From Gemmatimonadota bacterium (lineage in GTDB: Bacteria; JBHIER01; G020348925): a stretch of DNA of 64,000 bases. The translations under genes and the position numbers were made by a program. Position 1 is the stretch's first letter, and each line of letters opens with the position of its first letter. The notes under the pieces were generated by a model that saw nothing but the letters and a program-made list of their open reading frames with translations, was not told the DNA's origin and did not search any database. The stretch covers positions 4,461,775 through 4,525,774 of the forward strand of contig CP070758.1 in NCBI GenBank assembly GCA_020348925.1. The letters are read 5' to 3'. This document shows, in pieces, positions 1,331-40,321 of the stretch.

Positions 1331-1539
1331 CAGAAAGGACCTGAACCCCCGTCTCACGCGTTTTGCCCCAGGATTGGGCAAATGCCACACGGACTGAATG
1401 TGTTGTTTGGAGAAGAAGACACGAATGTTGAGAGAGAGGCGAATAAACGGTTTTGGTCGATTACGGAAATTAGATGTGCCGGAATGCGTTCGAGGAGGCA
1501 AAAATTATTTTGTGCGGATTCTGACAAAAAATTGTCTTT

Positions 1540-1555
1540 TGGCATAGTTTTCGCG
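1540..1555 (+). promoter_or_regulatory. Putative sigma54 (-24/-12) promoter
   Basis: TGGCAT-AGTTT-TCGC matches the consensus TGGCAC-N5-TTGC. GG at 1541-1542 and GC at 1553-1554 have the canonical 12-nt offset. It lies about 45 nt upstream of the riboswitch-like element and about 270 nt upstream of the first prepilin-like gene. Confidence 0.5.
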
Positions 1556-1602
1556 GTACTTGAATGAGCAAATGAAGAGGAACCCTCTCATGAGAATGAG
1601 AG

Positions 1603-1708
1603 GAGGCGCACGATAAAGGTAAACTCCGGGAAACCGGGGGGCACAAAGCTGCGGGTCTAAGGACAGAGGTCATGTCTATGACAGCCGGGCTGCCGAAGCG
1701 TTCGAGCC
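1603..1708 (+). promoter_or_regulatory. c-di-GMP-I (GEMM-I) riboswitch aptamer candidate
   Basis: The RNA reads AAAGGUAAACUCCGG-GAAA-CCGGGGGGCACAAAGCUGCGGGUCUAAGG...UAUGACAGCCGGGCUGCCGAAG. It has a 6-bp stem capped by a GAAA tetraloop, flanked by GGYAAAC and CACAAAGC. This parallels the Vc2 aptamer as I recall it (GGCAAACC..GAAA..GGGACGCAAAGCC) and the conserved GGGUCUAAG / GACAGCCGGGNUGCCGA 3' half. Boundaries are approximate. Confidence 0.7.
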
Positions 1709-1737
1709 ATGCGTTAAGCGGAATCCACTGCTTACGG

Positions 1738-1787
1738 TAGCCGGCTGTCGAGGCGTCCCAAAGGCCCTCGGGAATCCGGCTTTTTTA
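1738..1787 (+). terminator. Intrinsic terminator (candidate riboswitch expression platform)
   Basis: AGCCGG..CGAGG..(loop)..CCTCG..CCGGCT forms a nested hairpin. It is followed directly by TTTTTT at 1781-1786, about 40 nt before the ATG at 1827. Confidence 0.6.
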
Positions 1788-1826
1788 TTGGATGTGACGA
1801 ATGGCCATGGATAGGGACAAAACAAA

Positions 1827-2225
1827 ATGAGATTTCAAAGAAAAGTGAGAAGCATACATATCCTGTTTAAGGAGAGAGGGTTCACACTGGTGGAGATGAT
1901 TGTGGCCATGTTTATTTTTGGTGTTCTGGCCACCGGGATGACGACGCTCATGGGGGTCCTCATCCAGAACAATGAGTTTGCCCAGGATATCACCGTGGCC
2001 ACGACGTGGGCCGAAAACAAGATGGAGGAGTTTGAAAACATCCCGTTCGAGAGCATTACGTCCGGTTGGAACTGGGACCTGCCGATAGCCGGATTCTGGA
2101 GGGTGTGGGAGGTGAGAGACAACATTCCTCAAGCGGGATTGAAGCAAATTACCGTCATGGTCATCTGGTTCGACAGTAAATATCAATTTCACACCGTGAG
2201 TCTGTTAACGCTGAAGAGTACATAG
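1827..2225 (+). CDS. Prepilin-type N-terminal cleavage/methylation domain protein (PilV/GspI-like pilin or minor pilin)
   Basis: KERG|FTLVEMIVAMFIFGVLATG is the classic G/FTLxE prepilin motif followed by a hydrophobic helix. The protein is 132 aa. Confidence 0.8.
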   Translation: MRFQRKVRSIHILFKERGFTLVEMIVAMFIFGVLATGMTTLMGVLIQNNEFAQDITVATTWAENKMEEFENIPFESITSGWNWDLPIAGFWRVWEVRDNIPQAGLKQITVMVIWFDSKYQFHTVSLLTLKST

Positions 2226-2242
2226 GATCGCCGGGAGGGAGC

Positions 2243-3070
2243 ATGAGTATGTCTTCAATATGGAGAAGTGACAGGGGCACAACGATGGCGGAGATCCTCA
2301 TCGTCTTGTTGGTCATGGGGATATTGACGACGGCCATGGCCAAGTTTTTTGTGGCCCAAAATCGGCTATCCCATGTCGAAGAGCAGGTGGGGTTCATGCA
2401 GAAAAACGTCCGTTCGGCCATGGAGGTGATTGTTCGCGATGTCATGAACTGCGGCAGCGGCGTTCCCCTGAATATGGGCATCGATCCGTTGATTCCGGGC
2501 AATGGGGCGAGTGGAAGTCCGGATTCGATCGTTATCATGGCCAATTTCGATTATCAGTACACGACCTTGTTCCACGATGAAGGACCAGATAACAACCAGC
2601 ATGTGATGGATGCGACCGGATTTTATGTGGGGGGATTATTGTACATCGAGGATTTCAACGGCGGAGAATTCCACACGATCACCAGCATTACGCTGGGCAC
2701 AGCGAAGGGGGATCAGATCACAATCTCCAATCCCTTGAGCCGCACGTTTTATCAGATCGACACCATAGTATCACCCATTGCACGGGTCAGTTACGGGCTC
2801 AGCTGGACCGATCCGGATCATCCCAGTCTGGTCCGTGGGGTGAAGGGAAGGGGGGCGAAGGTGCTGGCCAACAACATCGAGGATCTGCAGTTCGCCTACA
2901 TTTTAAAGGACGGGACGGAATCGGCCCAGCCGGCGGACATAGCCCAGGTACGCATGGTGAAGATCATGATGACGGCCCGGTCGGACAAGCAGGATTGTGA
3001 GTTCGGCGGTGACGGCTATCGCCGACGGGCCTTGGAGTCCTTGGTTAAACCGAGGAATCTGGACTTATAA
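2243..3070 (+). CDS. PilW/GspJ-like minor pilin with a degenerate prepilin N-terminus
   Basis: DRG|TTMAEILIVLLVMGILTTAMA has Glu at +5 after the Gly and a hydrophobic helix. Its size and its position after a PilV-like gene fit a minor pilin. Confidence 0.6.
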   Translation: MSMSSIWRSDRGTTMAEILIVLLVMGILTTAMAKFFVAQNRLSHVEEQVGFMQKNVRSAMEVIVRDVMNCGSGVPLNMGIDPLIPGNGASGSPDSIVIMANFDYQYTTLFHDEGPDNNQHVMDATGFYVGGLLYIEDFNGGEFHTITSITLGTAKGDQITISNPLSRTFYQIDTIVSPIARVSYGLSWTDPDHPSLVRGVKGRGAKVLANNIEDLQFAYILKDGTESAQPADIAQVRMVKIMMTARSDKQDCEFGGDGYRRRALESLVKPRNLDL

Positions 3071-3103
3071 CGAAACTTCACTCACAGAGGAGGTGATGCG
3101 ATT

Positions 3104-4339
3104 ATGTTTAAGGGTATGATCTTCAACGAGCGCGGAGGCGTGCTCTTCGCCGTTGCCCTGTCGACCGTGGCCATGGTTATGATGGGGGTAACGGCCTTTT
3201 ATCTGGCCAATACGGAGGTGACGGCCTCCGGGGCGAAGTTTGAAAAGGCGAAGGCGCTCTACTTGGCCCAAGCAGGGCTACACCGGGCGATTGTCGAGAT
3301 GACGAACGGTATGGATGACGGCTGGCAAGACGAGATCGCCGGAGCCGACGGTACGACGGGGACGAGCGATGACGGGATCTTGGCTTTCGGCCCGAGTGTC
3401 GATTGTACGCCGTTTCAAAGCGGGTATTCCACGGGCGAGTCAGACGAGGTCTCAAGCAGCTATTGGAATCGTTATCTGGGGCACTATGATGTGCGGATTG
3501 AGGACGGGCGCCGGCCGGGCGAGCAGAGCGGTGACTGCAATAAGGCCATTCTGGGTTCGGTAGGGGTCTCCTCGAAGGATTTCAGTACCAGGGTTGAGGC
3601 CGAGATCGAAGTGTTTGAGCTGCCCCCACCCCCCTCGCTGGTCTTCATGATCGGTCGGTACAACGAAACGGTCTTTCCCGATCCGTTTTTCGCCGGTCAG
3701 TCGTGGTGGATCGGAGGGGAGGATAGGAATCTCGATGATACAGGTGGACCGACCGTCGGGAAACCCGGCATCGGAACCAACGGCGTCGCTCAAGGTATTG
3801 TCGATGCACTGAATGATAATCAAAAGGACCAGGTCTCAGGAATCGGCTACGATCCGGCAGCGTCCCCACCCATACCGAGCGTTCAGCACGTGGACACTCA
3901 GGTGAATCTTCGGGAAATTGCTTACAAGCTCAAGAGCATGGCCGATAATATTGTTCCTCCGGGAACGTACGCCACGTTCACAGGCTACGGGAGCCCCACC
4001 GATTACCAGATTACGGTGTGTGACGGAGACCTGCACCTGAGCGGCGACATTGAAGGATACGGGACACTGGTGATAACCGGTGATTTCAAAATGAGTGGAC
4101 AGGGCAAGTGGGTGGGCTACATCATATGTCTCAATCACGCCAGGTTCACCGGAGGAGGCACGCAGTTCCATCTGTATGGGACGTTGATGATCGGAAATTC
4201 GTCGGGTCTTGATTTACTGGCTGAGTTTGAGATCACGGGCAATGCTGATTTGTTATACAGTTCGGAGGCGATAGAGAAGACGAGGCTGGCTGTGAAAACC
4301 GTCGCGATAAAGAGCTGGCGGAGAATGGCCGCGAACTAA
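3104..4339 (+). CDS. PilX-N-domain / GspK-like large minor pilin
   Basis: The N-terminus NERGGVLFAVALSTVAMVMMGVTAFYLANTEVTASGAKFEKAKALYLAQAGL resembles the PilX N-terminal domain pattern. An AGGAGG RBS sits upstream. Confidence 0.6.
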   Translation: MFKGMIFNERGGVLFAVALSTVAMVMMGVTAFYLANTEVTASGAKFEKAKALYLAQAGLHRAIVEMTNGMDDGWQDEIAGADGTTGTSDDGILAFGPSVDCTPFQSGYSTGESDEVSSSYWNRYLGHYDVRIEDGRRPGEQSGDCNKAILGSVGVSSKDFSTRVEAEIEVFELPPPPSLVFMIGRYNETVFPDPFFAGQSWWIGGEDRNLDDTGGPTVGKPGIGTNGVAQGIVDALNDNQKDQVSGIGYDPAASPPIPSVQHVDTQVNLREIAYKLKSMADNIVPPGTYATFTGYGSPTDYQITVCDGDLHLSGDIEGYGTLVITGDFKMSGQGKWVGYIICLNHARFTGGGTQFHLYGTLMIGNSSGLDLLAEFEITGNADLLYSSEAIEKTRLAVKTVAIKSWRRMAAN

Positions 4340-4358
4340 GAAACGGCTGTGGAGCACT

Positions 4359-4396
4359 GTGGAGATTTGAACGAATTTTTCAAATCTCCACTTTTC
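4359..4396 (+). terminator. Intrinsic terminator after the prepilin-like genes
   Basis: A perfect 13-bp stem pairs GTGGAGATTTGAA (4359-4371) with TTCAAATCTCCAC (4379-4391). The loop is 7 nt and a TTTT run follows. Confidence 0.75.
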
Positions 4397-4490
4397 GAGG
4401 CGCATGTCGACATTGATGTAGAATGTATTCGTTCTGGGGTAATGCGGTTGAAGATCAAAAAGTTAATTCGAACGGAATTGAAAATTTAAC

Positions 4491-4519
4491 TTGACATTAT
4501 GGTAAAAAAAGTGTACCTT
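4491..4519 (+). promoter_or_regulatory. Possible sigma70-type promoter for pilMNOPQ
   Basis: TTGACA (4491-4496), a 17-nt spacer, then TACCTT (4514-4519). The -10 element is weak. Confidence 0.3.
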
Positions 4520-4579
4520 TGGGGCAAATGACTAAGTATTGTGGTTTCTTATTCGGTGAACTACTAAATGTGGTAGGGT

Positions 4580-5650
4580 TTGATAATGAAAATTGGATTG
4601 AAAAAAAAGGAAAAAGTTGCGGCAGGCCTTGTTATTGGCACGCGGTGCGTAAAATTGGTCTGTCTGGAGCACGGGATCGATGCGTACAGACTGCGATTCT
4701 TTGGGATAGAGGAATTGCATGCCGATGCCATTCTGGCCGGCGAAGTGAGAGATCGGGATGGGGTCATCCGGGCCGTTCGGAGTCTCATCGATCGCAGTGG
4801 GCTGCCGATCAAAGAAGTGATCGTGTCCCTTTCCGGAAATGAGGTTTTGAGTGAGATTGTCAACATTGAAAGCGTGTTCGAGGGGAAAGAGGATGAGATT
4901 GTGCGAACCGAGGCCGAGCGCGTCAATCCCTTCGATTTCGACATCGGATCGGTTACGTTGGATTACAAAACACTGGAGGCGGATCCTGAATCGGATCAGT
5001 TGCGGGTCCTGCGTATTGCAGCAAGGAACGAAGTCATTTATAATAAATACATGGATATACTATCAGGAGCCCAATTGCGGCCAGCCATTTTGGACGTTGA
5101 TTTTTGCGCCCTGATGAATGTCTTCTCCCTCAACTATGACGCCCAATCGTTCCAGACAACGGCCCTCTTAAACATCGGCGTGGAGAGTACGAGTATTATC
5201 TTTCTGGGCAACGGTGCATTTCATCTGACTCGGGAGCTGCCCCTCGGTGTGGAGGCCTTTGTGAAGGAAATCCAGCGGGAACAAAAAGTGAAAGTTGAAG
5301 AGGCCGAGCGTGTTCTGAGAGAGGCCATCGATACGGATTTGGAGCAGGAGGCGCTCGCGGGTCCCATCGAACGCGTTGGAGAGGATTTGGCCAAGGAGAT
5401 TGAGATCGCACGATCCTTTTTCCTGTCAGCGACTTCCTACGAATCAATGGACACGATGTTTCTCAGTGGCGGGGGAGCACTCATTCCCGGCATGACGGAT
5501 CTCTTGGGAAAATTGGCCGGAACGAGTGTAAAGATTTTGAACCCCTTGATCGCGATAAAATACGATTACGGCCTTTTCGGTGACCAACCTCCGGAGAAGA
5601 TCTCACCGTTGCTGACGTTGGCCATTGGATTGGCTCTCAGGAGAATGTGA
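4580..5650 (+). CDS. pilM: Type IV pilus assembly protein PilM (actin-like ATPase fold)
   Basis: The length, the overall sequence pattern (..PAILDVDFCALMNVF.., ..MFLSGGGALIPGM..) and the position before pilN all fit PilM. The stop overlaps the pilN start (ATGA). The start is TTG 4580 or ATG 4586. Confidence 0.85.
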   Translation: MIMKIGLKKKEKVAAGLVIGTRCVKLVCLEHGIDAYRLRFFGIEELHADAILAGEVRDRDGVIRAVRSLIDRSGLPIKEVIVSLSGNEVLSEIVNIESVFEGKEDEIVRTEAERVNPFDFDIGSVTLDYKTLEADPESDQLRVLRIAARNEVIYNKYMDILSGAQLRPAILDVDFCALMNVFSLNYDAQSFQTTALLNIGVESTSIIFLGNGAFHLTRELPLGVEAFVKEIQREQKVKVEEAERVLREAIDTDLEQEALAGPIERVGEDLAKEIEIARSFFLSATSYESMDTMFLSGGGALIPGMTDLLGKLAGTSVKILNPLIAIKYDYGLFGDQPPEKISPLLTLAIGLALRRM

Positions 5651-6228
5651 TGAAGTTACTGGAATTCAATTTATTACCGGAAGAGTTTCGTCGCCCAGAG
5701 AAGGTCGTTCGATTCAGAATATGGGGGGTCGTCATCGTTGTGGCGACAGCCGTTTTGGTGGGGTTCCTTATTCTGATCTATACCGGGCAAAGGAGAACTT
5801 TGGATAATCTCAATGCAAGAATCGGCTCGGCTCAGAGCGACATCGCCAAGCTGCAGGAGAGTGTTCGTCTGACACGAGAGGTCGATGAGCTGAAGACAGG
5901 GATCAGCCAAAATATCCGGGCCATCAATGCCGTGGCCAACCAGAACGCGGAGCGTGTCGCCGTGCTCCAACAGATAAATGCTTGCGTTTCTCATGAGTTG
6001 GCTCTCATATCATTGGAGGAGCAAGCTTTGGGAACTGGCTATGGGTATCTTATTACCGGCCATGCCACATCAAACTTGGCCGTGGTTCGATTCATCGATA
6101 GTCTCAAAGATTCGGAAAAATTTCAACGCGTGACGTTGACGTACATTCGCCCGACACAGGTGGACGGTGAATATGTTCTGAGCTTTGAGATCAACGCCGT
6201 CGTCACTTTATCAGCAAGTGGTACGTAA
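5647..6228 (+). CDS. pilN: Type IV pilus assembly protein PilN
   Basis: It has the N-terminal FNLLPEEFR motif, one TM helix and a coiled-coil segment. It lies between pilM and pilO. Confidence 0.8.
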   Translation: MMKLLEFNLLPEEFRRPEKVVRFRIWGVVIVVATAVLVGFLILIYTGQRRTLDNLNARIGSAQSDIAKLQESVRLTREVDELKTGISQNIRAINAVANQNAERVAVLQQINACVSHELALISLEEQALGTGYGYLITGHATSNLAVVRFIDSLKDSEKFQRVTLTYIRPTQVDGEYVLSFEINAVVTLSASGT

Positions 6229-6259
6229 TTTTCAGAGCGGGAGACAGCAGAGGTAAAAA

Positions 6260-6820
6260 ATGAATTTGAATGCATCGCCAGTGTTAAAAGGTTTGATCGT
6301 CGTACTCCTCGCCGTAGTCATATTTTATGGTTTCAACCGGTACATCTATGCGCCCAACAAAGAGACCATTCGTGAGCGGCAGGTGGAATTGGGCAGATTG
6401 TCGACAACGCTTCTTCACGTCAGGGAGACCGTCGAAAATCTGCCGAAGGTGAAAGCGGAATACGAAGCGCTGCAGGAGGAGTGGCAACGCTTGGAGATAC
6501 TGGTACCACAGCGCGAGGAGGTGACCGATCTCATTCAGGAGATATCTCAGGCGGAGAAAAAAGCGGGACTCTATATTATTTCCATTGAGCCTCAAGCCTC
6601 CGTGCCGAAAGAATTGTTTACCGAGAATCCCTATCGGCTGGAGATTGAAGGAAGCTATCACAGTTTCGCCCGTTTTGTGAGTGCGCTGTCAAAACTGGAG
6701 AGAATCATCAATGTGTCCCAGGTTCAACTCTATGCCAATCCGACTGCGTTGGATGAACACGATGCCGTTGTTGTGCGATGTATGCTGACATCGTACACCT
6801 CGTTAAGGAGAAGCGGTTAG
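6260..6820 (+). CDS. pilO: Type IV pilus assembly protein PilO
   Basis: One TM helix is followed by a coiled coil and a ferredoxin-like C-terminal region. The gene sits in the pilO position. Confidence 0.75.
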   Translation: MNLNASPVLKGLIVVLLAVVIFYGFNRYIYAPNKETIRERQVELGRLSTTLLHVRETVENLPKVKAEYEALQEEWQRLEILVPQREEVTDLIQEISQAEKKAGLYIISIEPQASVPKELFTENPYRLEIEGSYHSFARFVSALSKLERIINVSQVQLYANPTALDEHDAVVVRCMLTSYTSLRRSG

Positions 6821-6847
6821 ACATTTGAGAAAAGGGAGCAGTGCGTC

Positions 6848-7714
6848 ATGTATGGTCGATGTGTATCTACTTTCGTCATGAGTCTACTTTTACTCTGTGC
6901 TGGCCTGGTGTGCGTGGAATCGACGCCATGCCAGACTCAGCCTGAGGGAAGTTCAGCTCAGGATACTGTTTCCCGAGAGCAAGATATCGAGACACCGCCG
7001 ACAGTGACACGGGAAAAGATCGAATATCGCAGCCAAGGTCGGAAAGATCCGTTTAAGCCTCTTGTCGAAACGGAAGAAGAGGAGGAGCTCCCCCCACTGC
7101 AAGTCGATGGGGCGACGGTGTCAGGTATCATGCTGGGATCTGAGGGGCGTTTGGCCCTCATTCGAGATGGTGATGGGCGAACATACGTCCTGGGGGAGGG
7201 TGCCAAGGTGAAGAACGGGTACCTCCGGAGGATTACGACAGACACGGTTATCTTTAATGTTGTGAAATACGGGCGGTATCGAAGAGTTGAATTGGAGCTG
7301 AAAAGCGCCAAGAAGGCCCAGGAGTTCGAGCAGAGTGTGGCCAGAACGGCGCGTCAAACGAAGCCCGCTCAACCGAAACCTGCTCAACCGAAGCCCGCTC
7401 AACCGAAGCCCGAGGTGACGCAAGCCCAAGTGAAGCCACCCAAGGTTGACGTTCCACCCGAGCAGATGAAGGGCTCGACATTCACCCTGCAGGTAGCTGC
7501 GTACCGCTTGGAGAGCGACGCGAAACGTCTGCAGCAGTGGCTTCGAGAGCGGGGATACGAGACGCGAATTGAATCGATTACCATACCGGAGTCCGGTCTC
7601 TGGTACCGTGTCCGGTTTGGAGTGTACGATACCTATGAGGCAGTCAAAGAGATGGCGAAGACATTTCGAGAGCGCTTTGATTTCTATTGCTGGGTTGTTC
7701 CCATTGATTCTTAA
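6848..7714 (+). CDS. pilP: PilP-like pilotin/alignment protein fused to a C-terminal SPOR peptidoglycan-binding domain
   Basis: After a signal peptide come a DPFKPL motif and a beta-domain (LQVDGATVSGIMLGSEGRLALIRDG..VIFNVV) typical of PilP. The C-terminus FTLQVAAYRLESDAKRLQQWLRERGYETRIES..WYRVRFGVYDTYEAVKE matches the SPOR pattern. A KPAQP-repeat linker joins the two parts. Confidence 0.7.
   Translation: MYGRCVSTFVMSLLLLCAGLVCVESTPCQTQPEGSSAQDTVSREQDIETPPTVTREKIEYRSQGRKDPFKPLVETEEEEELPPLQVDGATVSGIMLGSEGRLALIRDGDGRTYVLGEGAKVKNGYLRRITTDTVIFNVVKYGRYRRVELELKSAKKAQEFEQSVARTARQTKPAQPKPAQPKPAQPKPEVTQAQVKPPKVDVPPEQMKGSTFTLQVAAYRLESDAKRLQQWLRERGYETRIESITIPESGLWYRVRFGVYDTYEAVKEMAKTFRERFDFYCWVVPIDS
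7361..7413 (+). repeat. 15-bp tandem repeat (about 3.5 copies) encoding (KPAQP)n in the PilP-SPOR linker
   Basis: The units are aagcccgctcaaccg / aaacctgctcaaccg / aagcccgctcaaccg / aagcccgag.. Confidence 0.9.
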
Positions 7715-7738
7715 CTCTTTTTACGAAGTGAGGATAGC

Positions 7739-8989
7739 ATGAAGACGAAGCGAAAGATCATACTGTACAGTGTGCGCACGATATGCCTGATGGGGGTTCT
7801 CTGGCTATGTATGCAACCCCTGTCGAGGGCATGAGAGGATACAATTTCGTACCTCAATCTGGATAATGCGGAAATTCACTCGGTCTTTCGGTACTTATCG
7901 GAGGTGAGTGGTGTGAACATCATCGCCGATCATGATGTGCAAGGGGAAGTTTCCCTCCACCTTGAGGAAGTGACCTGGCGTCAGGCGTTGGATGCAATCA
8001 CTACCTCTCAGGGACTCTATTCGAAAGAGACCGATGAGTTCATACGAGTGATGACGCAGGAGTCGTATTACGATGAACAACTCAAAGTGCACTCGGAAAG
8101 AATGGAACAGGAAAAAGTGATCGGTCTGGAACAGATCGTGGTGAAAGTTGAGAATGCCAAAGCCGATGACATCGAAGGTTCTGTTAAAAATTTATTATCG
8201 GATAGGGGCAGAATAGGGATTGACCAGAGGACGAATTCATTGGTGATCTCTGACGTACCGACGCGGCTTCCTTTAATCGAAGAGACAATTCAAAGCCTGG
8301 ACACCAAGACTCCCCAAATTACGATTGAGACGAAACTGGTCGAGTTGAATAATCGTGCGCTCAGTGAGATTGGCATCGATTGGACGGCGATGACGTCGAC
8401 CGGGGATATTATCCAATTCCTCGGGGCCAAAGCGATTATGGAGACCACTGCTGTTGGGCAGGTTTTGTACAGCACCTTGGGTCACGACGTGAGTCTGGAC
8501 GGCGTTCTCAAAGCCGTGGAAACCGGCAATCTGGGTGAAATTGTCGGATTGCCGAAGATTACGGTTGTGGATCACAAGGAAGGGCTCATTTTCATGGGGG
8601 AGAGAGTTCCGCTGACCACAGTCGACTTCTCAGGAAATGTTGTTGTCAGAATGGAGGAGGTCGGAACGGAGCTGGCGGTTACCCCGCATATTACAGAAGG
8701 AAATAAGATTTTGTTGGAATTGAAACCTGAGCGGAGTGCCGTGACGGAGGTGATTCCGGGGGTGGGATATCGCATGAGCACCCAGCGAGCATCGACGGAA
8801 GTGGTTGTTGACGATGGAGATACGGTCGTCATCGGTGGATTGCGGACCACAGAGGAGACCAACCTCCAAAAGGGTGTTCCCATTCTGAAGGAGATTCCCC
8901 TTGTGGGAAGCCTGTTTCGATACACGCGCAGCGAAGTTCTTGAAAAGGATCTCATCATCTTTGTCACGCCGACGATAGTAAATCATTAG
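7739..8989 (+). CDS. pilQ: Type IV pilus secretin PilQ, interrupted by an in-frame TGA at 7832-7834. The longest uninterrupted ORF is 7904..8989.
   Basis: ATG 7739 encodes a signal-peptide-like MKTKRKIILYSVRTICLMGVLWLCMQPLSRA, then TGA. The same frame continues EDTISYLNLDNAEIHSVFRYLSEVSGVNIIADHDVQGEVSLHLEEVTWRQALDAI, which is a secretin N0 domain. The C-terminus VPILKEIPLVGSLFRY..IIFVTPTIV is the secretin signature. Confidence 0.85.
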
Positions 8990-9052
8990 AGATGAAACAT
9001 AGCGTTTCGGGGCGAGGCGAGTTCGTCTCGGCTTTTAGGGAGGCACAGAACA

Positions 9053-12000
9053 ATGAAAACAATACGATCCGGTGTATTGATAGTGTTGGGAGCAATCGTC
9101 GCGTCCGGTCTCTTGCTGGGAGTATGGATCGGATGTGAGAAAAAAGGAGGCTTGGGCCCTCCGGTTGGGGAATCCCATCTGACGATCGCATCGTTGACGA
9201 CCAGTCTGTCATCGATTCAGACGGGTGGCCAGACCGCAATTATTACGGCCGTCGTCACAGATTCCATAGGTGACCCTCGACAGGACGTGGTTGTTCTCTT
9301 TTCTACGACCGTAGGGAGCATCACATCACCGGCGACGACGGATAGTCTCGGTATGGCGCGGGCGACCTTAACGAGCGGATCCGCCTCTGGGCGGGCGAAA
9401 ATTACGGCCAGTATCGAATCTGAGGATGTTTCCAAGGTCGTTTACGTTCAGATCGGTGCCGTGACCTCGAGAATTACGGTGACGGCCTCCGAATTGGTGA
9501 TCTATGCGAACGGAGCATCAACATCATTGATTACGGCGACGGTGTTCGATTCCGCCGGGCTGCCACATCCGGGTGTGGCTGTCACCTTCACCACGACAGC
9601 CGGCCAAGTCCTGCAGCCCACCGGCTGGACAGGACCCGAAGGAACGGTCACGACCCTACTGGTGAGTGCGGCCAGAGTGACTGATATTACGGCGACGGTG
9701 ACGGCGGCGATCTCCGCGGGTTCCACGGCGAAGGGCTCCGATCCGTCGGATGCGGTTGCACTTCCGTCTCGGAAATCAGGGGGTAAAAAAGGAGTACAAG
9801 CGCGGAAGTCGCAAGCCGGCTCCGAGCTCGGGGTCGGTGCCAGGGGGAAAATTCTCAGCTCGGCTTTCGTCAACGTCGCGTTCATTGGCGTGACATTGAC
9901 GACGACGGTCGATCCCCCGCAGATTGCGGCCGATGAAGCAGAAGTATCCACCGTCACCGTCAACCTCAGGGAGACCACAACAACGATCCCCATCCCGAAC
10001 GCTCAGATTTTCTTCGGGACGAATCTGGGCACGATTGAGGGTGGCGCTGTGACCGATCTCAGTGGTGTGGCGACAGTGGCCCTGACGAGCGGCTCTGATG
10101 CCGGAGAAGCTCACGTGAAAGTGTATTACGGAGCTCTCGTTGATACAGTATTCGTTACCATTACTGCGACGAGTGATTTGACGATGATTTTTCAGCTCAA
10201 TGCGAATCCGACCACCCTTGATGCAAACGGTTCGAGCCAGACCGTCGTGACGGCAACGCTGAGCGATGCGCAGAACAATAATCCCGTCGTCGGAGTGAAG
10301 ATCAATTTTAAGACGACCCTGGGAACAATCACATCATATGATACGACCGATGCCTTCGGTCTGGCCAGGGCGACGCTGACCAGTGCCAGACGGAACGGGA
10401 CAGCAGTTGTCACAGCGTCCTACGCATCGTTGTCGAAGGTGATCCAGATCCAGTTCAAGGGGGTGTCGCTCCACGTTGCGGCCAATCCCACCAACCTGAG
10501 CGCCGATGGCACGACGGCATCCACAGTTGTTTTTACGCTGAAAGATGCGGCGAACATCCCCATCTTTGGAGAGCCGTGTTCCTGCTCATCTGAAATTGGG
10601 GTACTGTCTTCTGATCCGGTGTCACAGGGGTCGAGCGTTTTCGTCGATACGACCGATGTCAATGGCGAAGTGGTTGCGTATCTCAAGAGCGAGCAGCCGG
10701 GAATTGACATTGTCAAGGGTGAAGCGGCCGGGTCTCGCGACTCGACGGAGGTCCATTTTACCGGGTACGAATTCACCGTTCGCCCGAACAGATCTGAGAT
10801 TAAGGCGAACGGGGATACGGTGACGGTCGTCGCCGAACTGAAAAACAGCTTCGGAGTTCCTGAGCAAGATGCGCATGTGCGGTTTGCTACGACCCTGGGA
10901 AGGATCACTTTCTCTGACATGACCGATTCCGAGGGCAAGGCGAGGGCTCTTTTGACCAGTGAATACACCTCGGGTACGGCCACAATTTCGGCGCACGCGA
11001 CAACCGCCGAGGGACCTGTCACGGCTGAGACGACAGTGCTGATTCGTTCGGCCGCCTCAGACACGATTCTCCTGAGTGTTGATCCGAAAGTGGTCGCTGT
11101 GGGTGGTGGGAAAAGCGGCACGGCAACGCTCACTGCTCTCGTGTTGGATGGCTGGAATCCGGGCAACCCGGTTTCAAATGTCCTTGTATCTTTTACGTTT
11201 GTCGAAAATCCTGGGAACGGAGAGTACATCAATCCGGGGACGGCGACAACGGATATGAGTGGGAAAGCTGTGACGAGCTTCGTGAGTGGTGCCATTGCCA
11301 GTGAATTTGAGGGAATCAAGATCATCGCGTCGGCGGATGGCATCGTTTTTTCGGATACGGTCAAGCTCACCGTCGCAGGAGCCCCTGCCTCCGTTGCCGT
11401 CGGCTACGACACCGATTCCTTTACCGACAATGAGAACGGAACGTATACCCTGTCGGTGGCAGCGATCGTCGCCGACGCCAACGGCAATCCGGTTGTGGAC
11501 GGTACCTGGGTCTATTTCAGCTCATTCCCGAATATAGGGGTTGTCGAAAGCCCGGTTCAGACGGAAGATGGTATCGCCTCGTCCCAATTGAGCTACCCGG
11601 CGAGTTCGGTCGGTGAGGATATCACATTATACGCCGAGAGCGGCGGTGTCGAGGGGAATAAATCGTTCGGTTTGCCCGGACCAGCCGGCAATGCCAACAA
11701 AGTGGAATTGAATATCCTCGCGTCGAATATCCTCGCCAACGGCTTGTCGACAACTCTGGTCGATGCTCTTGTGACCGATGTTTTCAACCGTCCGGTCGGC
11801 GGGGCCATGGTTTATTTCGAAGTGCTTGATGGTCTGGGCGCTGTGACGAATGTGGCTTTTACGGTGACCGACCCCACGCGTGACGATTTCGGAGTCGCGC
11901 ATGCAACCTACACGAGCTATGCGAGTCCTGTTGACATCATCGTGTCCATACGCGCCTATGTTCTCGGTGCCGCGGAGGATGACATCATCGAAATTTTTCT

Positions 12001-13309
12001 GAGGGGCATCACCCTTGAGACAACCGCCTATCCCGACTCGCTTCCGGCTGACGGAACGAGCCAAGCGACCATTACCACAATGGTCAAGGAGACTGTCAGA
12101 GAGATTCCTATAGCTTTTGGGACGGTCAGTTTTGGAACTGAAATGGGGACGATTGTCGGTTCGGCTGTAACTGACGCGAGCGGTGAGGCCACTACGATTC
12201 TCACCAGCGATACAAGGATTGGGATGACCAGAGTGCTTGTGAGCTACGGTGAGACGCTCCTTGATTCCACTTTTGTGAAATTTACAGGACACGGTCCGTC
12301 GCAGATCGTAATTGTCTCCGCTGAACCGGATTCAATTGGCGTCATGGGAGGCGGTTACAACGAGTCTGCGGTTTTCGTGTTCGAGGTGAGAGATGACAGG
12401 GGGCGGCCGATCAGCTCCGATAATCCGCAGCAGGTCTCCTTTACAATGAACGGAGTCCCGCTGGTCAACCCCCCAGGAGGGCATGTGCCGTTTCTCGTAC
12501 CTGAGAGTGCCACAACTGACCAATTGGCTCGTGTCTCAACGGTCTTGAACAGTGGTTCGAAAGCGGGAGCCGTTGAAGTTGTCGCTTCCCTTGGTGCAAT
12601 CCGGTCGACCCCGGTTCGAGTTGCGATTCACGGCGGTTCACCGGATGGTGACCATTTCAGTATTGCGGCCGGTCACGTCAATATTGCTGGCCTCATCTAC
12701 TCGGGAATCATTGATACCATCACAGCCTTTGTCGGCGATCGCTACGCCAACCCAGTGCCTGAGAATACGGCCGTCTATTTTACGACGTCCGGAGGGATCA
12801 TCGAGGGTTCGGCGGTCACAGATCGGCTGGGAACGGCGAGCGTGGTTCTGATATCCGCGGATCCAAGACCGGTGGATGGTTGGGTCACCGTGACGGCCCA
12901 GACCGTCGACGGTGAGGGCCAGACGATTGAGGATACTATGCCTATTCTCTTTTCCGGGTCGACCGTCATTTCGAATGTGACACCGGGCACTTTTAATATC
13001 CCACAGGGCGGATCTCAATCTTTCCAGTACACTGTCTCGGATAGGAATGGGAATCCTTTGACCGCAGGTACTCGAATCAGAGTTACGGCCACAAAGGGAT
13101 TGTTGGGGGGAGCGGTTGATTTCAGATTGGCCGATACTCAGTCTCCGTTGGCAACACAGTTTTCCTTCGTGCTCTCTGATCCGGACGCCACCGACGAAGC
13201 ACCGACGGAGGGTTCGACAATTACCATAGAAGTTCTCACGAGTGATGTGGATTGTCCGCCGTGTCCCAGCGGGGACGCAACGATTTCTATTTCGGGAAGT
13301 ATCGACTAA
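9053..13309 (+). CDS. Giant lipoprotein made of about 14 bacterial Ig-like (Big_1, invasin/intimin-type) repeats; putative adhesin
   Basis: The signal peptide has a lipobox (..LLLGVWIGC). A repeat of the form AxVxDxxGxPxxxVxVxFxTTxGxI....TDxxGxAxAxLTSGxxxGxAxVTA recurs throughout the protein. Confidence 0.8.
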   Translation: MKTIRSGVLIVLGAIVASGLLLGVWIGCEKKGGLGPPVGESHLTIASLTTSLSSIQTGGQTAIITAVVTDSIGDPRQDVVVLFSTTVGSITSPATTDSLGMARATLTSGSASGRAKITASIESEDVSKVVYVQIGAVTSRITVTASELVIYANGASTSLITATVFDSAGLPHPGVAVTFTTTAGQVLQPTGWTGPEGTVTTLLVSAARVTDITATVTAAISAGSTAKGSDPSDAVALPSRKSGGKKGVQARKSQAGSELGVGARGKILSSAFVNVAFIGVTLTTTVDPPQIAADEAEVSTVTVNLRETTTTIPIPNAQIFFGTNLGTIEGGAVTDLSGVATVALTSGSDAGEAHVKVYYGALVDTVFVTITATSDLTMIFQLNANPTTLDANGSSQTVVTATLSDAQNNNPVVGVKINFKTTLGTITSYDTTDAFGLARATLTSARRNGTAVVTASYASLSKVIQIQFKGVSLHVAANPTNLSADGTTASTVVFTLKDAANIPIFGEPCSCSSEIGVLSSDPVSQGSSVFVDTTDVNGEVVAYLKSEQPGIDIVKGEAAGSRDSTEVHFTGYEFTVRPNRSEIKANGDTVTVVAELKNSFGVPEQDAHVRFATTLGRITFSDMTDSEGKARALLTSEYTSGTATISAHATTAEGPVTAETTVLIRSAASDTILLSVDPKVVAVGGGKSGTATLTALVLDGWNPGNPVSNVLVSFTFVENPGNGEYINPGTATTDMSGKAVTSFVSGAIASEFEGIKIIASADGIVFSDTVKLTVAGAPASVAVGYDTDSFTDNENGTYTLSVAAIVADANGNPVVDGTWVYFSSFPNIGVVESPVQTEDGIASSQLSYPASSVGEDITLYAESGGVEGNKSFGLPGPAGNANKVELNILASNILANGLSTTLVDALVTDVFNRPVGGAMVYFEVLDGLGAVTNVAFTVTDPTRDDFGVAHATYTSYASPVDIIVSIRAYVLGAAEDDIIEIFLRGITLETTAYPDSLPADGTSQATITTMVKETVREIPIAFGTVSFGTEMGTIVGSAVTDASGEATTILTSDTRIGMTRVLVSYGETLLDSTFVKFTGHGPSQIVIVSAEPDSIGVMGGGYNESAVFVFEVRDDRGRPISSDNPQQVSFTMNGVPLVNPPGGHVPFLVPESATTDQLARVSTVLNSGSKAGAVEVVASLGAIRSTPVRVAIHGGSPDGDHFSIAAGHVNIAGLIYSGIIDTITAFVGDRYANPVPENTAVYFTTSGGIIEGSAVTDRLGTASVVLISADPRPVDGWVTVTAQTVDGEGQTIEDTMPILFSGSTVISNVTPGTFNIPQGGSQSFQYTVSDRNGNPLTAGTRIRVTATKGLLGGAVDFRLADTQSPLATQFSFVLSDPDATDEAPTEGSTITIEVLTSDVDCPPCPSGDATISISGSID

Positions 13310-14087: not shown

Positions 14088-15782
14088 ATGAAATTAGTCG
14101 AGTGTGTCCCTAATTTCAGCGAAGGACGTGATAGCGCTGTTCTTGACGCCATTGCTGCTGCCATAGCGAGTGTCCAGAGTGTGAAACTCCTGGATGTTGA
14201 TCCGGGGGAGGACACCAATCGGACGGTCGTCACCTTCATTGGATCTCCTGAGGGAGTGGTGGAAGCGGCGTTCCAGGCTATCCGTACCGCTGCCGAACTC
14301 ATTGACATGAGAACCCACACAGGAGCTCACGCCCGCATGGGTGCCACAGATGTGTGTCCCTTTGTGCCTGTGTCAGGGGTGACGATGGAAGATTGTGTCG
14401 CCCTGGCCAACGCGTTGGGCCAGCGGGTCGGCGAGGAACTGAACATACCGGTCTACCTCTATGAGGAAGCGGCCAGGAAACCGGAGCGTCGAAATTTAGC
14501 CGTGGTTCGTCGGGGTGAGTATGAGGGCTTGCCAGAGAAGCTGGCCGATCCCAACTGGCAGCCCGATTTCGGACCGGCTCTTTTTAATCCGAGATCAGGA
14601 GCGACCGTAGTCGGCGCACGAGAGTTTCTCATAGCCTACAATGTGAACCTGAACACGAAGGACCGGAAGCTGGCTCACGATATCGCCTTGACCATTCGGG
14701 AGGGGGGGCGGGCCAAGAAAGATATTCATAAGAGAATCATCAGGGACGAAAACGGAAAAGCCATAAAGATACCCGGAAAACTCAGAGCCTGTAAGGCAGT
14801 GGGGTGGTATATTGATGAATATCGCATGGCTCAGATATCGATCAATCTTGTCAATTATAACGTCACGCCGCCACACATGGCTTTCGAGACGATACGAGAG
14901 GAGGCCAGCGTTCGGGGATTGCGGGTTACTGGAAGTGAGTTGGTGGGACTCATTCCGAAAGAAGCGATGCTCATGGCCGGCCGTTACTATTTACGGAGAC
15001 AGGGGAAATCTGCGGGGGTTCCGGAGGAGGAGCTCATTCGGGTTGCCGTCCATTCTCTGGGGCTCAATGAGATCGCTCCCTTTGATCCCCGGCAGAAGAT
15101 AATTGAATACCAATTCGGTTCCGGACCACAGTCCCTGACAGGCAAATCATTGAGAGAATTTTCGGATGAGGTTTCGACGGATTCACCAGCACCGGGCGGC
15201 GGGAGTGTGGCAGCGCTCTCCGGAGCGCTGTCCGCGTCTCTCAGCGCCATGGTAGCGAACCTAACTCACGGGAAGGGTGAATATGAGAGTGCCTGGAGCC
15301 TCATGGAGGAGATCGCCTGCGAGGCTCAACGGCTCAAGGATTTTTTTCTCGATGCCGTTGAGGAGGATACGGCCGCTTTCAATCGTGTGATGGATGCCCA
15401 CAGGTTGCCGAAAAAGACTGAGGAGGAGAAGAAACACCGTGTCGCAGCAATTGACGAGGCGACCAAAGAGGCGGCCCGAGTACCGTTACGTGTCATGGAG
15501 AAAGCTCTTGAAACATTGGAGCTTGCCAAGACCGTGGCCGAGAAAGGCAATGTGAATTCAGTCAGCGATGCCGGTGTGTCCGCCATCGCAGCCAAGGCCG
15601 CAGTGGATGGTGCTGCCCTCAATGTGCTCATTAATCTCGGATCCATTGAGGATCAGAAATTTGTGAAGTCCTGTCGCAAAGATGTTGCGGCGATTCAAAA
15701 GACCGTAGCCCCGCTGGTCGAAGAGATATTGGCCTGTGTTTCAACGAAGATGAACGCAGATGCGTCACATGGAAATCTCTGA
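14088..15782 (+). CDS. ftcD: Bifunctional glutamate formimidoyltransferase / formimidoyltetrahydrofolate cyclodeaminase
   Basis: The N-terminus MKLVECVPNFSEGRD is the formiminotransferase signature. The C-terminal third (..SPAPGGGSVAALSGALSASL..) matches the cyclodeaminase domain. Confidence 0.85.
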   Translation: MKLVECVPNFSEGRDSAVLDAIAAAIASVQSVKLLDVDPGEDTNRTVVTFIGSPEGVVEAAFQAIRTAAELIDMRTHTGAHARMGATDVCPFVPVSGVTMEDCVALANALGQRVGEELNIPVYLYEEAARKPERRNLAVVRRGEYEGLPEKLADPNWQPDFGPALFNPRSGATVVGAREFLIAYNVNLNTKDRKLAHDIALTIREGGRAKKDIHKRIIRDENGKAIKIPGKLRACKAVGWYIDEYRMAQISINLVNYNVTPPHMAFETIREEASVRGLRVTGSELVGLIPKEAMLMAGRYYLRRQGKSAGVPEEELIRVAVHSLGLNEIAPFDPRQKIIEYQFGSGPQSLTGKSLREFSDEVSTDSPAPGGGSVAALSGALSASLSAMVANLTHGKGEYESAWSLMEEIACEAQRLKDFFLDAVEEDTAAFNRVMDAHRLPKKTEEEKKHRVAAIDEATKEAARVPLRVMEKALETLELAKTVAEKGNVNSVSDAGVSAIAAKAAVDGAALNVLINLGSIEDQKFVKSCRKDVAAIQKTVAPLVEEILACVSTKMNADASHGNL

Positions 15783-15810: not shown

Positions 15811-16881
15811 TTGACTGAAAAGAAATCTGATGGGATAAGAGATGATATTATGAAACGAAAAGCGATAGCAGAGGATGTAGGACTCGGACGGGTAAAAATT
15901 GTGTGTCGGCATGACGCTATGCGCGAGTTGATCGAGAAGTCCGAACGGATCGCACAGAATCCTCATATTACGGTGCTGATCCGTGGCGCAAGCGGTACGG
16001 GAAAAGAGCTCATAGCCCGACTCATACACTCGAGGGGACCATCAAATGCGGGCCCGTTTGTCGAAATTAATTGCTCGGCCATTCCTGATACCTTATTGGA
16101 GGCCGAACTGTTCGGGCACGAAAAAGGCGCTTTCACAGACGCGAAAATCAAGAAAAAGGGTCTTTTTGAATTGGCCGACGGTGGAACGGTTTTCTTAGAT
16201 GAGATTGGGACGATGAGTATGAAATTGCAGTCCAAACTGCTTCGCGTCATCGAGGAAAAGCGGTTCATGCGTCTGGGCGGCACCGAGGAGATCGAGGTCA
16301 GCGTCAGAATTATTGCCGCGACAAATATCGACTTGGAGAAAGCGCTCGAAGACGGGACCTTTCGAGAGGATCTCTACTATCGCTTAAATGTTATCTACTT
16401 GGAATTGCCTCTGCTGCGGGATCGGGGCGACGACGTTATTCTCCTGGCGGAGCATTTTCTTAACCGTTTTTCATCCGAATACAACCGGGATATCCGGGGA
16501 CTCTCACCGGAGGCGAAACAGGTTCTCAGCGAGTACGCGTGGCCGGGAAACGTCCGGGAATTGAAAAATACGATTGAGCGGGCTGTCTTTATGGGCAGCG
16601 GAGATGTGATTGAACCGGAGCATCTGGAGATTACGCGACGGGTCAGAGAACCTCTCTCGAAGGCCAGTATGTCCCCAGTGACGGTGACGTCGACAGGTAA
16701 AATCGAAATTAATTTTCCTTCAAGCGGCATATCCTTGGAAGCAGTTGAGCAGAGATTGATTCAGAGTGCTCTTGAAGCGTGCCGCTGGAACGTGAGCCAA
16801 GCTGCAAAACTTCTTTCACTCTCCCGGGACACTCTGCGCTATCGTATTAAAAAATTCGACCTCGATTCCCAGGAAACCTGA
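15811..16881 (+). CDS. Sigma54-dependent transcriptional activator (AAA+ EBP with a Fis-type HTH and no receiver domain)
   Basis: Walker A GASGTGKE, ELFGHEKGAFTDA (a variant of the GAFTGA loop), and the C-terminal HTH NVSQAAKLLSLSRDTLRYRIKKF. The start is TTG 15811 or ATG 15850. Confidence 0.85.
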   Translation: MTEKKSDGIRDDIMKRKAIAEDVGLGRVKIVCRHDAMRELIEKSERIAQNPHITVLIRGASGTGKELIARLIHSRGPSNAGPFVEINCSAIPDTLLEAELFGHEKGAFTDAKIKKKGLFELADGGTVFLDEIGTMSMKLQSKLLRVIEEKRFMRLGGTEEIEVSVRIIAATNIDLEKALEDGTFREDLYYRLNVIYLELPLLRDRGDDVILLAEHFLNRFSSEYNRDIRGLSPEAKQVLSEYAWPGNVRELKNTIERAVFMGSGDVIEPEHLEITRRVREPLSKASMSPVTVTSTGKIEINFPSSGISLEAVEQRLIQSALEACRWNVSQAAKLLSLSRDTLRYRIKKFDLDSQET

Positions 16882-17220
16882 GCGCACCGTTTCCTTCCCC
16901 TCGCATTTCTATTTCATCGCAAATATTTTAAAAGTTCTCATTTCTTCCAACCGACGTACTCCTGTCTCGATGTACAATAAGAACGTATATGGGGCAAATT
17001 TCCCACGGCATTGCTCTTTTCATATATTTGGGTTATATCTCCCTGAACGGCAGCCTCGCAGCTTTGACATCCTGCCAGATCGTCCGCTCGCTGAGAGGTT
17101 CAGTGCTGTCGAATAATATATTATAAGATATTGTATTTTAAGTGAATACGTTATTTTCTCTGGGAGACTGTTGCCGGTTCATTCCCTTTTTTTGAAATAC
17201 TGTGAGCAGTCGGGTGGAGC

Positions 17221-17236
17221 GGGTACATTTTTTGCA
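17221..17236 (+). promoter_or_regulatory. Putative sigma54 (-24/-12) promoter upstream of the TPR/GGDEF/HD-GYP operon
   Basis: gGGTAC-ATTTT-TTGCA matches TGGCAC-N5-TTGCA. GG lies at 17222-17223 and GC at 17234-17235. It sits about 67 nt upstream of the TPR gene start and downstream of the EBP gene. Confidence 0.45.
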
Positions 17237-17302: not shown

Positions 17303-18154
17303 GTGACCGAAGTGGGAATATATCGAAGCAGCCCCAGAATTTATGAAAATGGAAAGGATCCGAGAAATGTCGCTGAAGGGTTGACAGATTTGGGGGTGGT
17401 GTACTTTGAATTGGGGAATTGCGATTTTGCCCTGGGGCATTTTGAGAGAGCGTTTCGTCTTGCCGAGAAGATCGGCTATGAAGCCGTTATGGCCAATGTT
17501 TTGAATAATCTGAGTGTGATCTCTGCCGTTCAGGGATATCTCGATAGGGCTGTCCTTCACGGGCAAGACTGTCTTGCCCGCTACGGAAAATTGCAGGATC
17601 GCTTTGGATTGGCTCAAGCGTACAACAATTTGGGCATGGTGTATTTGGAGAAACGAGCCAGCCAAAATGCTCTTGATTGTTTTGAAAAGGGTTTGCATGT
17701 TTCACACAGGTTGGAGAGCTGCGCTCTGGTCGCTACCATATATGTGAATAAGGCCGATTATAACCTGAGGAGGTCGGACTTTCGGGCGGCGTCTCATTTT
17801 TGTGAGTTGGCCTCCGGACTCTACCGGCAACTTGGAGATTACCGGGGGATAGCGGAAACGGAGAAAATTTTCGGACTTATTGCTTTTTCCAGCGGCGATC
17901 CTCAGAGGGCTCGGGCACTTTTGGAGCATGCTCTGGAACTGACGAAACGGCACGGAACCTATTATGCCCTTGCCGAGGTGTATCGAGAATTGGGTTCCTT
18001 CTATCGAAAGAAAGGCTATCGTCGCAAAGCGTACGCAGCTTTATCAACAGCGTTCAGCAGCTTTGAGCAGTTGGGCTCGAAAAAGAAGGCCGGTCAGATA
18101 AAAAGTGAGCTCTATCAGTTGCACAAATCGCGACGATTCAAAAAAGATGCTTGA
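17303..18154 (+). CDS. Tetratricopeptide (TPR) repeat protein
   Basis: It has multiple 34-aa TPR-like units (LGVVYFELGNCDFALGHFERAFRLAEKIGY, AYNNLGMVYLEKRASQNALDCFEKGL, and others). Its stop overlaps the next ORF. Confidence 0.75.
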   Translation: MTEVGIYRSSPRIYENGKDPRNVAEGLTDLGVVYFELGNCDFALGHFERAFRLAEKIGYEAVMANVLNNLSVISAVQGYLDRAVLHGQDCLARYGKLQDRFGLAQAYNNLGMVYLEKRASQNALDCFEKGLHVSHRLESCALVATIYVNKADYNLRRSDFRAASHFCELASGLYRQLGDYRGIAETEKIFGLIAFSSGDPQRARALLEHALELTKRHGTYYALAEVYRELGSFYRKKGYRRKAYAALSTAFSSFEQLGSKKKAGQIKSELYQLHKSRRFKKDA

Positions 18155-18174
18155 ACTTGTGGTGGAATCGTGTC

Positions 18175-21459: not shown

Positions 21460-21556
21460 GAACTTTTAACCGACACTGCTGATTGTTGTTGAAATATTTG
21501 AAATCTCAGTTTTCAGCAAATCGTTGAAAAACGGAGACCGGGAAAGGAAGAAGAGA

Positions 21557-40313: not shown

Positions 40314-40321
40314 TTCTAACT

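Follow-up and report, generated by a model that had tools for sequence, protein, structure and literature searches.

A c-di-GMP-I riboswitch leader with a sigma54-type promoter element and predicted OFF polarity upstream of a pilus-like operon

Type IV pilin promoters are often dependent on sigma54 and an enhancer-binding protein (EBP), as in the control of pilA by PilR-RpoN in Pseudomonas and Geobacter. GEMM-type riboswitches are also already known in front of pil genes, and switches of both polarities have been described (PMC9262584). The Cd1 riboswitch of Clostridioides difficile, upstream of the flagellar flgB operon, works with an aptamer strand A, a switching strand T, and a terminator strand H, with A and T forming the antiterminator so that ligand favors termination (PMC9262584). 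In Geobacter metallireducens, a GEMM-Ib switch for 3'3'-cyclic GMP-AMP (3'3'-cGAMP) uses a GEMM-I-type aptamer to govern a pilMNOPQ-type operon by transcription termination (PMC9262584), and in the Vc2 aptamer of Vibrio cholerae the nucleotides that touch the ligand, cyclic di-GMP (c-di-GMP), are G20, A47, and C92 (PMC6140456). Here we analyze a leader that combines features of these systems, found in a 64,000-nt stretch of DNA (hereafter the window; contig CP070758.1, positions 4,461,775 to 4,525,774) from a metagenome-assembled genome that carries the NCBI label Gemmatimonadota. In this leader, a GEMM-I aptamer and a sigma54-type promoter element lie ahead of a pilus-like operon (Table 1). 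For the pairing of a sigma54 promoter with a c-di-GMP riboswitch, we found in open-access text no describing paper, only incidental co-mentions.

We propose that control is exerted in two layers from the 496-nt gap ahead of the operon, an explanation (sigma54/EBP initiation together with a c-di-GMP OFF switch) to which we give a probability of about 0.6. Initiation would take place through sigma54-RNA polymerase at 1540-1554, with a start near 1566, and would require an EBP that probably binds a dyad at 1363-1389; the EBP without a sensor that is encoded at 15811-16881 is a possible candidate. During elongation, the transcript would fold a small hairpin (1584-1603) first and then the aptamer (1608-1697). 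With no c-di-GMP, the aptamer 3' strand at 1674-1700 would pair with 1729-1754 and sequester the 5' arm of the terminator, letting the polymerase read into the operon; with c-di-GMP bound, the 3' strand would be locked in the aptamer, and the terminator at 1739-1781 with its U6 tract would form and stop transcription 40 nt before the first gene. Expression of the operon would then need both an active EBP and a low level of c-di-GMP. Two layers, enhancer-dependent initiation and second-messenger-controlled elongation, would be stacked in one leader and, if true, would make an AND-NOT gate for a surface machine comprising a pilus-like secretin system and a giant Ig-repeat adhesin. An earlier note on this DNA had suggested the combination of promoter and riboswitch, which our analysis supports, the promoter part on the strength of relatives and not of the window alone; the polarity, the upstream dyad, and the ON versions in relatives go beyond it.

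Relatives were gathered from genome and metagenome collections with the PilX-like protein of the operon as the query. GEMM-I aptamers precede homologous pilin/PilX-like/PilM gene sets at L003, L005, L045 (two), L047, L048 (two), L053, L059, and L107; the L047 aptamer directly precedes pilM, and the L053 locus is cut by a contig end. The genome collection provided a single full-length relative (L006) and the metagenome collection contributed L053 and L059, while the window's own genome has two paralogs, P0012 and P0021.

Both its model score and its covariation place the aptamer fully within the GEMM-I family. The c-di-GMP-I model (RF01051, gathering score 35 bits) matches the plus strand at 1608-1697 over its full length (model positions 1-87) with 80.8 bits (E = 2.6e-14), the sole Rfam match in the window, and places the aptamer where the earlier note had proposed GEMM-I (about 1603-1708). 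The control family that it had named, c-di-GMP-II (RF01786), has no match in 1400-1900 even with a permissive E <= 10, and a c-di-GMP-II identity was thereby ruled out. With a covariance model of the clade itself (R1), the window aptamer scores 109.7 bits. When eight aptamers of the clade are aligned, 95.5% of cells form standard pairs and nine pairs are altered on both sides, a level reached in 0 of 500 shuffles, and sliding the partners as a control leaves 25-43% paired. Model pair 13-36 is U1620-A1643 in the window, U-A in most of the clade, and C-G in the Rfam consensus, relative to which the replacement of C-G by U-A that the earlier note had described is real; because the relative L107 and the unrelated aptamer of L029, from a Candidatus Omnitrophota metagenome-assembled genome, have C-G, it covaries as a structural pair.

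The expression platform begins from a terminator that is real and conserved. Folding recovers the hairpin that had been noted ahead of a T6 tract: it spans 1739-1781 with -22.7 kcal/mol, is followed by T6 at 1781-1786, and ends 40 nt ahead of the ATG at 1827. A simple consensus scan does not pick it up because of its internal loops; homologous units of hairpin and U tract are present in 11 of 11 related leaders.

The alternative folds of this platform are coupled to the aptamer in silico, as emerged from the folding with and without an aptamer constraint that the earlier note had suggested. In the unconstrained minimum free energy (MFE) structure, the aptamer 3' strand (1674-1700) pairs with 1729-1754, covers the terminator 5' arm, and so competes with the hairpin at 1739-1781. 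This duplex is worth -43.4 kcal/mol, compared with -26.8 +/- 3.9 in shuffled sequences (z ~ -4.3). When the aptamer helices are enforced, as a stand-in for the ligand-bound state, the probability of the terminator base helix rises from 0.000 to 0.89, and the MFE of the leader changes from -93.5 kcal/mol (antiterminator) to -80.6 kcal/mol (aptamer plus terminator). The ortholog L107 follows the same OFF logic, with an A3:T5 helix of -29.4 kcal/mol (z = -3.9), and in L005 a helix forms over the base of the terminator 5' arm (z ~ -2.9). From this modeling, the window leader is probably a Cd1-like OFF switch. It shares with Cd1 a GEMM-I aptamer, separate switching and terminator strands, an antiterminator made of the aptamer 3' strand and the terminator 5' arm, and a polarity, here predicted, in which ligand favors termination (PMC9262584). 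Unlike Cd1, the window leader belongs to another phylum, controls a pilus-like/secretin operon instead of flagella, and has a sigma54-type promoter and an enhancer-like dyad ahead of it; its terminator 5' arm is a recognizable duplicate of the aptamer 3' strand.

Several points weigh against OFF control. The full-length MFE of L005 retains the terminator in both states, and the ortholog L003, which has a long platform, shows no significant antiterminator and a terminator predicted in both states; one switching model common to the four long leaders failed at L003 and was given up. Biologically, c-di-GMP commonly promotes adhesion, and switching off an adhesin/pilus operon runs counter to this. 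The equilibrium gap between the two states of the window leader is ~13 kcal/mol, so the switching decision would have to be kinetic, beyond the reach of thermodynamic folding. The foremost alternative keeps the same parts and gives them the opposite polarity or none: an ON switch, in which ligand frees a downstream segment that blocks the terminator or acts elsewhere, for example on RNA stability, or else a constitutive attenuator barely influenced by the aptamer. Besides the behavior of L003 and the usual action of c-di-GMP on adhesion functions, it draws on the ON design of all seven short leaders of related gene sets (below) and on a weak hairpin between spacer and 5' arm that shows up in L005 with the aptamer enforced. 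In the window, however, the corresponding spacer-to-5'-arm duplex (-11.2 kcal/mol) is no better than shuffled sequences (-13.1 +/- 2.4), whereas the duplex of the aptamer 3' strand with the 5' arm far exceeds its shuffles, the terminator base helix responds to the enforced aptamer, and L107 independently shows OFF logic. We consider the alternative rather unlikely, though the most serious of those weighed here, and favor the OFF switch.

The short leaders of the clade are built differently. In all seven, the terminator consists of the aptamer 3' strand, the complementary GGYGGYYCGGYU, and a U tract, and when the aptamer is enforced in folding (five leaders) the terminator is gone. These leaders are modeled as pilM-like ON switches, by folding in the five and by sequence inspection in L053 and L059; the design, with the aptamer 3' strand inside the terminator, is that of the G. 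metallireducens pilM switch and is shared by the short leaders of L047, L045, L048, L053, and L059. The window departs from the pilM switch in its OFF-type platform and in having pilin-like first genes instead of pilM. Two of these loci, L045 (3860-5659) and L048 (2396-4270), have ON-type GEMM-I leaders before operons with an HD-GYP (HD_5) phosphodiesterase, an arrangement that would form a negative feedback loop on c-di-GMP. Separately, the L029 aptamer (3268-3362) is a canonical GEMM-I, with 65 bits in the clade model, that ends at the start codon of a prepilin-like gene, which suggests translational control of a pseudopilin operon in an unrelated phylum.

Comparison of the two platforms points to an origin of one from the other. 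The terminator hairpin of the long leaders aligns over its whole length with the terminators of the short, ON-type leaders. Unit 1 (1674-1735) of the window resembles unit 2 (1734-1790) with z = 3.3; the two units of L005 resemble each other with z = 5.9, and the similarity is not significant in L003. The spacer of unit 1 resembles the terminator 3' arm minus its U tract (GGAATCCACTGCTT vs GGAATCCGGCTTTTTT). Because the aptamer 3' strand CAGCCGGGCUG is near-palindromic, its duplicate pairs both with the terminator 3' arm and with the original strand, so that one tandem duplication could convert an ON switch into an OFF switch. The OFF platform accordingly appears, from these alignments, to be a tandem duplicate of the ON terminator unit; the unit that would have been duplicated is "aptamer 3' strand - loop - terminator 3' arm". 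Closely related aptamers before related gene sets would then carry ON or OFF platforms, with the OFF version still displaying its origin from a duplicated ON terminator, and duplication would offer a simple route to reverse the sign of a riboswitch.

The promoter element that had been noted at 1540-1554 is present as TGGCAT-AGTTT-TCGC, with GG at 1541-1542 and GC at 1553-1554; the predicted transcription start falls near 1565-1567. Its GG and GC are 10 nt apart as in TGGCAC-N5-TTGCW, and it has one departure, TCGC for TTGC. Within the window alone the element is not above chance: GGCA-N5-TTCGC has one match in 64 kb, with 0.55 expected and at least one match in 42 of 100 shuffles. The case for it comes from the relatives. 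The pattern tGGCAy-N4-TTTCGC precedes the aptamer in 8 of 11 leaders (window, L003, L005, L045a, L048a, L048b, L059, and L107), at 47-69 nt in most and 146 nt in L059, with a chance expectation of ~0.005 (9 specified bases, ~1300 positions searched). A 270-nt upstream alignment has only two conserved islands, the -24/-12 element and the dyad, and the flanks do not align. Canonical TTGC forms stand at the equivalent place in L047 (TGGCAT-N5-TTGC), L006 (GGGTAC-N5-TTGC), and L106 (TGGCAC-N5-TTGC). Across eight related loci, a loose sigma54 pattern has 15 matches on the gene strand vs 2 on the other strand (shuffles 2.4 +/- 1.6), and many of these sit just 5' of PilX-like paralogs. All eight promoters directly before an aptamer have TTCGC at -12, and promoters of the same gene family that are without an aptamer, or 400 nt away from one, have TTGC; the split could stem from shared ancestry of the module or mark a difference in function.

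The dyad adds a candidate enhancer to this picture. Its center lies ~169 bp upstream of the -24 GG, and for CCCAnnnnTGGGCAAATGCCAC 0.06 chance matches are expected in the window. L003, L005, L006, and L048a have it too, 170-205 bp ahead of the -24 element, which is the usual distance for enhancers, and L045a, L048b, and L106 have a weaker form. A candidate activator is encoded 2.5 kb past the end of the operon, and another EBP gene lies directly upstream of the riboswitch-pilM operon of L047; the two proteins are 37% identical. The window EBP has a Walker A motif, an AAA+ domain, and HTH_8, and only ~30 residues precede the AAA+ domain, so that a sensor of the receiver, GAF, or PAS type is absent. 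At the loop that contacts sigma54 the protein has GAFTDA, which occurs naturally as a tolerated variant of GAFTGA (PMC4641369), and the L047 EBP likewise has TDA in this loop. The window EBP may act on the 1540 promoter and may bind the dyad at 1363-1389. The parts in common with sigma54 pilin promoters are GG-N10-GC, a candidate upstream activator site, an EBP with HTH_8 as candidate activator, and a pilin-like first gene; unlike them, the window has TTCGC at -12, an EBP without receiver or sensor, and a riboswitch and terminator between promoter and gene.

Because GG-N10-GC is conserved in place, canonical forms occur in relatives, a dyad lies upstream, and EBP genes are found in cis, we read 1540-1554 as a sigma54 promoter with good confidence, as far as sequence comparison can carry it. 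Against this stand the noncanonical TCGC at -12, a sigma70-like CTGACA-16-CATAGT with an upstream TG at 1521-1548 that overlaps the element, and the lack of an rpoN gene among those seen in the 64-kb window. Together with the chance-level frequency of the motif in the window, these points would fit a promoter that is not of the sigma54 type, be it a sigma70 extended -10 promoter (TGgCATAGT, with CTGACA as -35), one for another alternative sigma factor, or a repressor site instead. We regard this as distinctly improbable: correctly spaced hexamers of this kind are missing from L003, L005, L045a, and L048b, and what does not vary is precisely GG and GC at a distance of 10 nt, with canonical sites at the equivalent place in L006, L047, and L106, the conserved dyad at enhancer distance, and EBP genes in cis. 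A sigma70 promoter was therefore set aside as the principal interpretation. Two candidate open reading frames (ORFs) over the same region, of 61 aa at 1382-1567 (L001, Logan assembly) and of 74 aa at the same place in L005, share no protein similarity with each other and were rejected as spurious.

Two relatives show the sigma54 promoter in other company. L006 (584-960) has the dyad and a canonical sigma54 promoter, followed by a decayed aptamer remnant (RF03167, 17.8 bits, 808-873) and no terminator, and L106 (2210-2465) has a weaker dyad and a canonical promoter with no aptamer. Both keep the promoter without a working aptamer, which argues that the riboswitch was added to these operons as a module.

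Between the predicted start and the aptamer, the small hairpin that had been reported at 1583-1603 is an 8-bp stem at 1584-1603, and the segment it lies in folds with -12.9 kcal/mol (z = -3.1 vs shuffles). Hairpins occupy the same place, with sequences that are not conserved, in L003, L005, L045a, L048a, and L048b, and z is below -2.6 in four of seven leaders tested. The hairpin may stabilize the 5' end or insulate the folding of the aptamer. A minus-strand "terminator" at 1604-1583 from the consensus scan was dismissed as this plus-strand hairpin read backwards; no convergent gene ends there.

By their sequence, the ligand-contact positions of the aptamer are of the c-di-GMP type, and not of the cGAMP type or the GGC variant. 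Mapping Vc2 numbering to the window through the Rfam consensus, a mapping that is itself indirect, gives G1618, A1645, and C1693/C1694 (model positions 11, 38, and 83/84) as the equivalents of G20, A47, and C92. Like Vc2, the window has the two-hairpin fold, the GAAA tetraloop, and, under this mapping, the three contacts (PMC6140456); unlike Vc2, its second P1 pair is U-A instead of C-G, and its expression platform and gene context differ. The cGAMP-sensing GEMM-Ib switches have an A at the position equivalent to G20 (PMC6140456). A GEMM-Ib identity was ruled out by G1618 and by the G of all clade members in that column, and c-di-GMP, not the cGAMP of the G. metallireducens pilM switch, is the expected ligand. 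The c-di-GMP-I-GGC variant (RF03167) is defined by a G at the A47-equivalent position and was likewise ruled out, the window and all relatives having A there (CACAAAG). Within the clan, RF01051 is the winning model for the window. Several relatives score slightly better with RF03167, yet they mismatch exactly at its diagnostic column, and from their sequences the advantage is due to the outer closing helix and the variable P2 loop rather than to variant chemistry. That the aptamer binds something other than c-di-GMP, such as 3'3'-cGAMP or another dinucleotide, through the clade-specific U-A pair or local changes is very improbable. In its favor, c-di-GMP and cGAMP switches are apparently not told apart by RF01051 and the scans showed no family of their own for cGAMP switches, the pilM switch for cGAMP has been described as highly homologous to Cd1 (PMC9262584), RF03167 is the best-scoring model for several relatives, and U-A 1620-1643 directly adjoins G1618/G1619. 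Against it, the G20 and A47 equivalents are the G and A of c-di-GMP aptamers, the pair can be U-A or, as in L107, C-G within the clade, which is expected of a purely structural pair, and genes for a GGDEF cyclase and an HD-GYP enzyme lie nearby.

These two c-di-GMP enzymes and the EBP, all three of which the earlier note had listed, are encoded downstream of the pilus-like operon (Table 1). A second sigma54-like element, GGGTAC-ATTTT-TTGCA, lies at 17221-17236, ~70 nt before an operon for TPR, REC-GAF-PAS-GGDEF, and REC-HD-GYP proteins (17303-22579). About 230 bp before this element, at 16988-17008, is TGGGGCAAATTTCCCACGG, which resembles the dyad at 1363-1389 and the dyad of L045. Judging from these sites, the c-di-GMP enzymes may share the activator of the riboswitch operon.

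A wider reading, which we offer only tentatively and in which all parts would have to hold jointly, is as follows. The dyad, TTCGC sigma54 promoter, small hairpin, and GEMM-I aptamer would be a portable module that has spread before alternative pilin-like/pilus-assembly sets. A single tandem duplication of the near-palindromic switching strand would have flipped the module from ON to OFF in one gene set. One c-di-GMP signal would then turn one pilus/adhesin set off and others on, including the sets that bear HD-GYP genes. Finally, the TPR-GGDEF-HD-GYP operon, with its promoter at 17221 and dyad-like site at 16988-17008, would close an incoherent feed-forward loop via the same activator. Whatever the fate of this scheme, the leader is a new example of known parts and not a new kind of system, and stacking of a sigma54 promoter on a riboswitch is not mechanistically surprising. 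What most deserves to be pursued in these bacteria, which are known from metagenomes only, is that ON and OFF platforms occur together on aptamers that are close relatives, and that the apparent duplication linking them can still be seen.

Table 1. Features of the leader, the operon downstream of it, and associated regulatory genes (positions in the window)
Feature	Position	Strand	Basis
Candidate enhancer (upstream activator site), dyad TGCCC-N7-GGGCA then AATGCCACA	1363-1389	+	conservation
Sigma54-type -24/-12 element, TGGCAT-N5-TCGC	1540-1554	+	sequence, conservation in relatives
Hairpin between predicted start and aptamer, 8 bp, loop GAGA	1584-1603	+	folding
c-di-GMP-I (GEMM-I) aptamer	1608-1697	+	RF01051, R1, covariation
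Aptamer P1 pairs	1619-1620 with 1643-1644; 1624-1629 with 1634-1639	+	RF01051 alignment
P1 GAAA tetraloop (GNRA)	1630-1633	+	sequence
Aptamer P2 pairs	1647-1657 with 1680-1691	+	RF01051 alignment
P2 receptor-like CUAAG / UAUG	1657-1661 / 1677-1680	+	sequence
Antiterminator, predicted without ligand, 1674-1700 with 1729-1754	1674-1754	+	unconstrained MFE
Intrinsic terminator, 5' arm 1739-1757, 3' arm 1763-1781, U tract 1781-1786	1739-1786	+	folding
Regulated pilus-like operon	1827-13309	+	Pfam and NCBIfam matches
Prepilin-type protein, G/FTLVE cleavage motif	1827-2225	+	
Second pilin-like protein	2243-3070	+	
PilX-like 411-aa protein, no Pfam domains	3104-4339	+	
PilM	4580-5650	+	
PilN	5647-6228	+	
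PilO	6260-6820	+	
SPOR-domain protein	6848-7714	+	
PilQ/GspD-type secretin	7904-8989	+	
1418-aa Big_1/invasin-repeat protein	9053-13309	+	
Sigma54 EBP, candidate activator	15811-16881	+	Pfam Sigma54_activat 2.4e-68, HTH_8
REC-GAF-PAS-GGDEF protein	18151-21459		
REC-HD-GYP protein	21524-22579		

The genes from 1827 to 13309 are inferred from spacing and synteny to form one transcript; their order is kept in the metagenome contig L003 and partly in L005 and L051. Between this pilus/adhesin operon and the EBP gene lies a formiminotransferase-cyclodeaminase gene (14088-15782) with no obvious functional link. Farther along the window, a near-canonical sigma54 element (AGGCAC-ATCTT-TTGCT, 43298-43313) stands 24 nt before an ORF for a 163-aa lipoprotein (43337-43828) that has no Pfam or NCBIfam match, and a palindrome-like site, CCTCATATTGGG, is found at 43187-43198, ~110 bp upstream of that element. 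The remainder of the window carries housekeeping genes. Type IX secretion C-terminal sorting domains and a Fibrobacter succinogenes major domain are encoded in the window (41937-42785 and 40061-41281) and in L003 and L005 (1-2178). Type IX secretion tail domains and the Fibrobacter-type domain are typical of the FCB group, and their presence is suggestive of a source organism within it.

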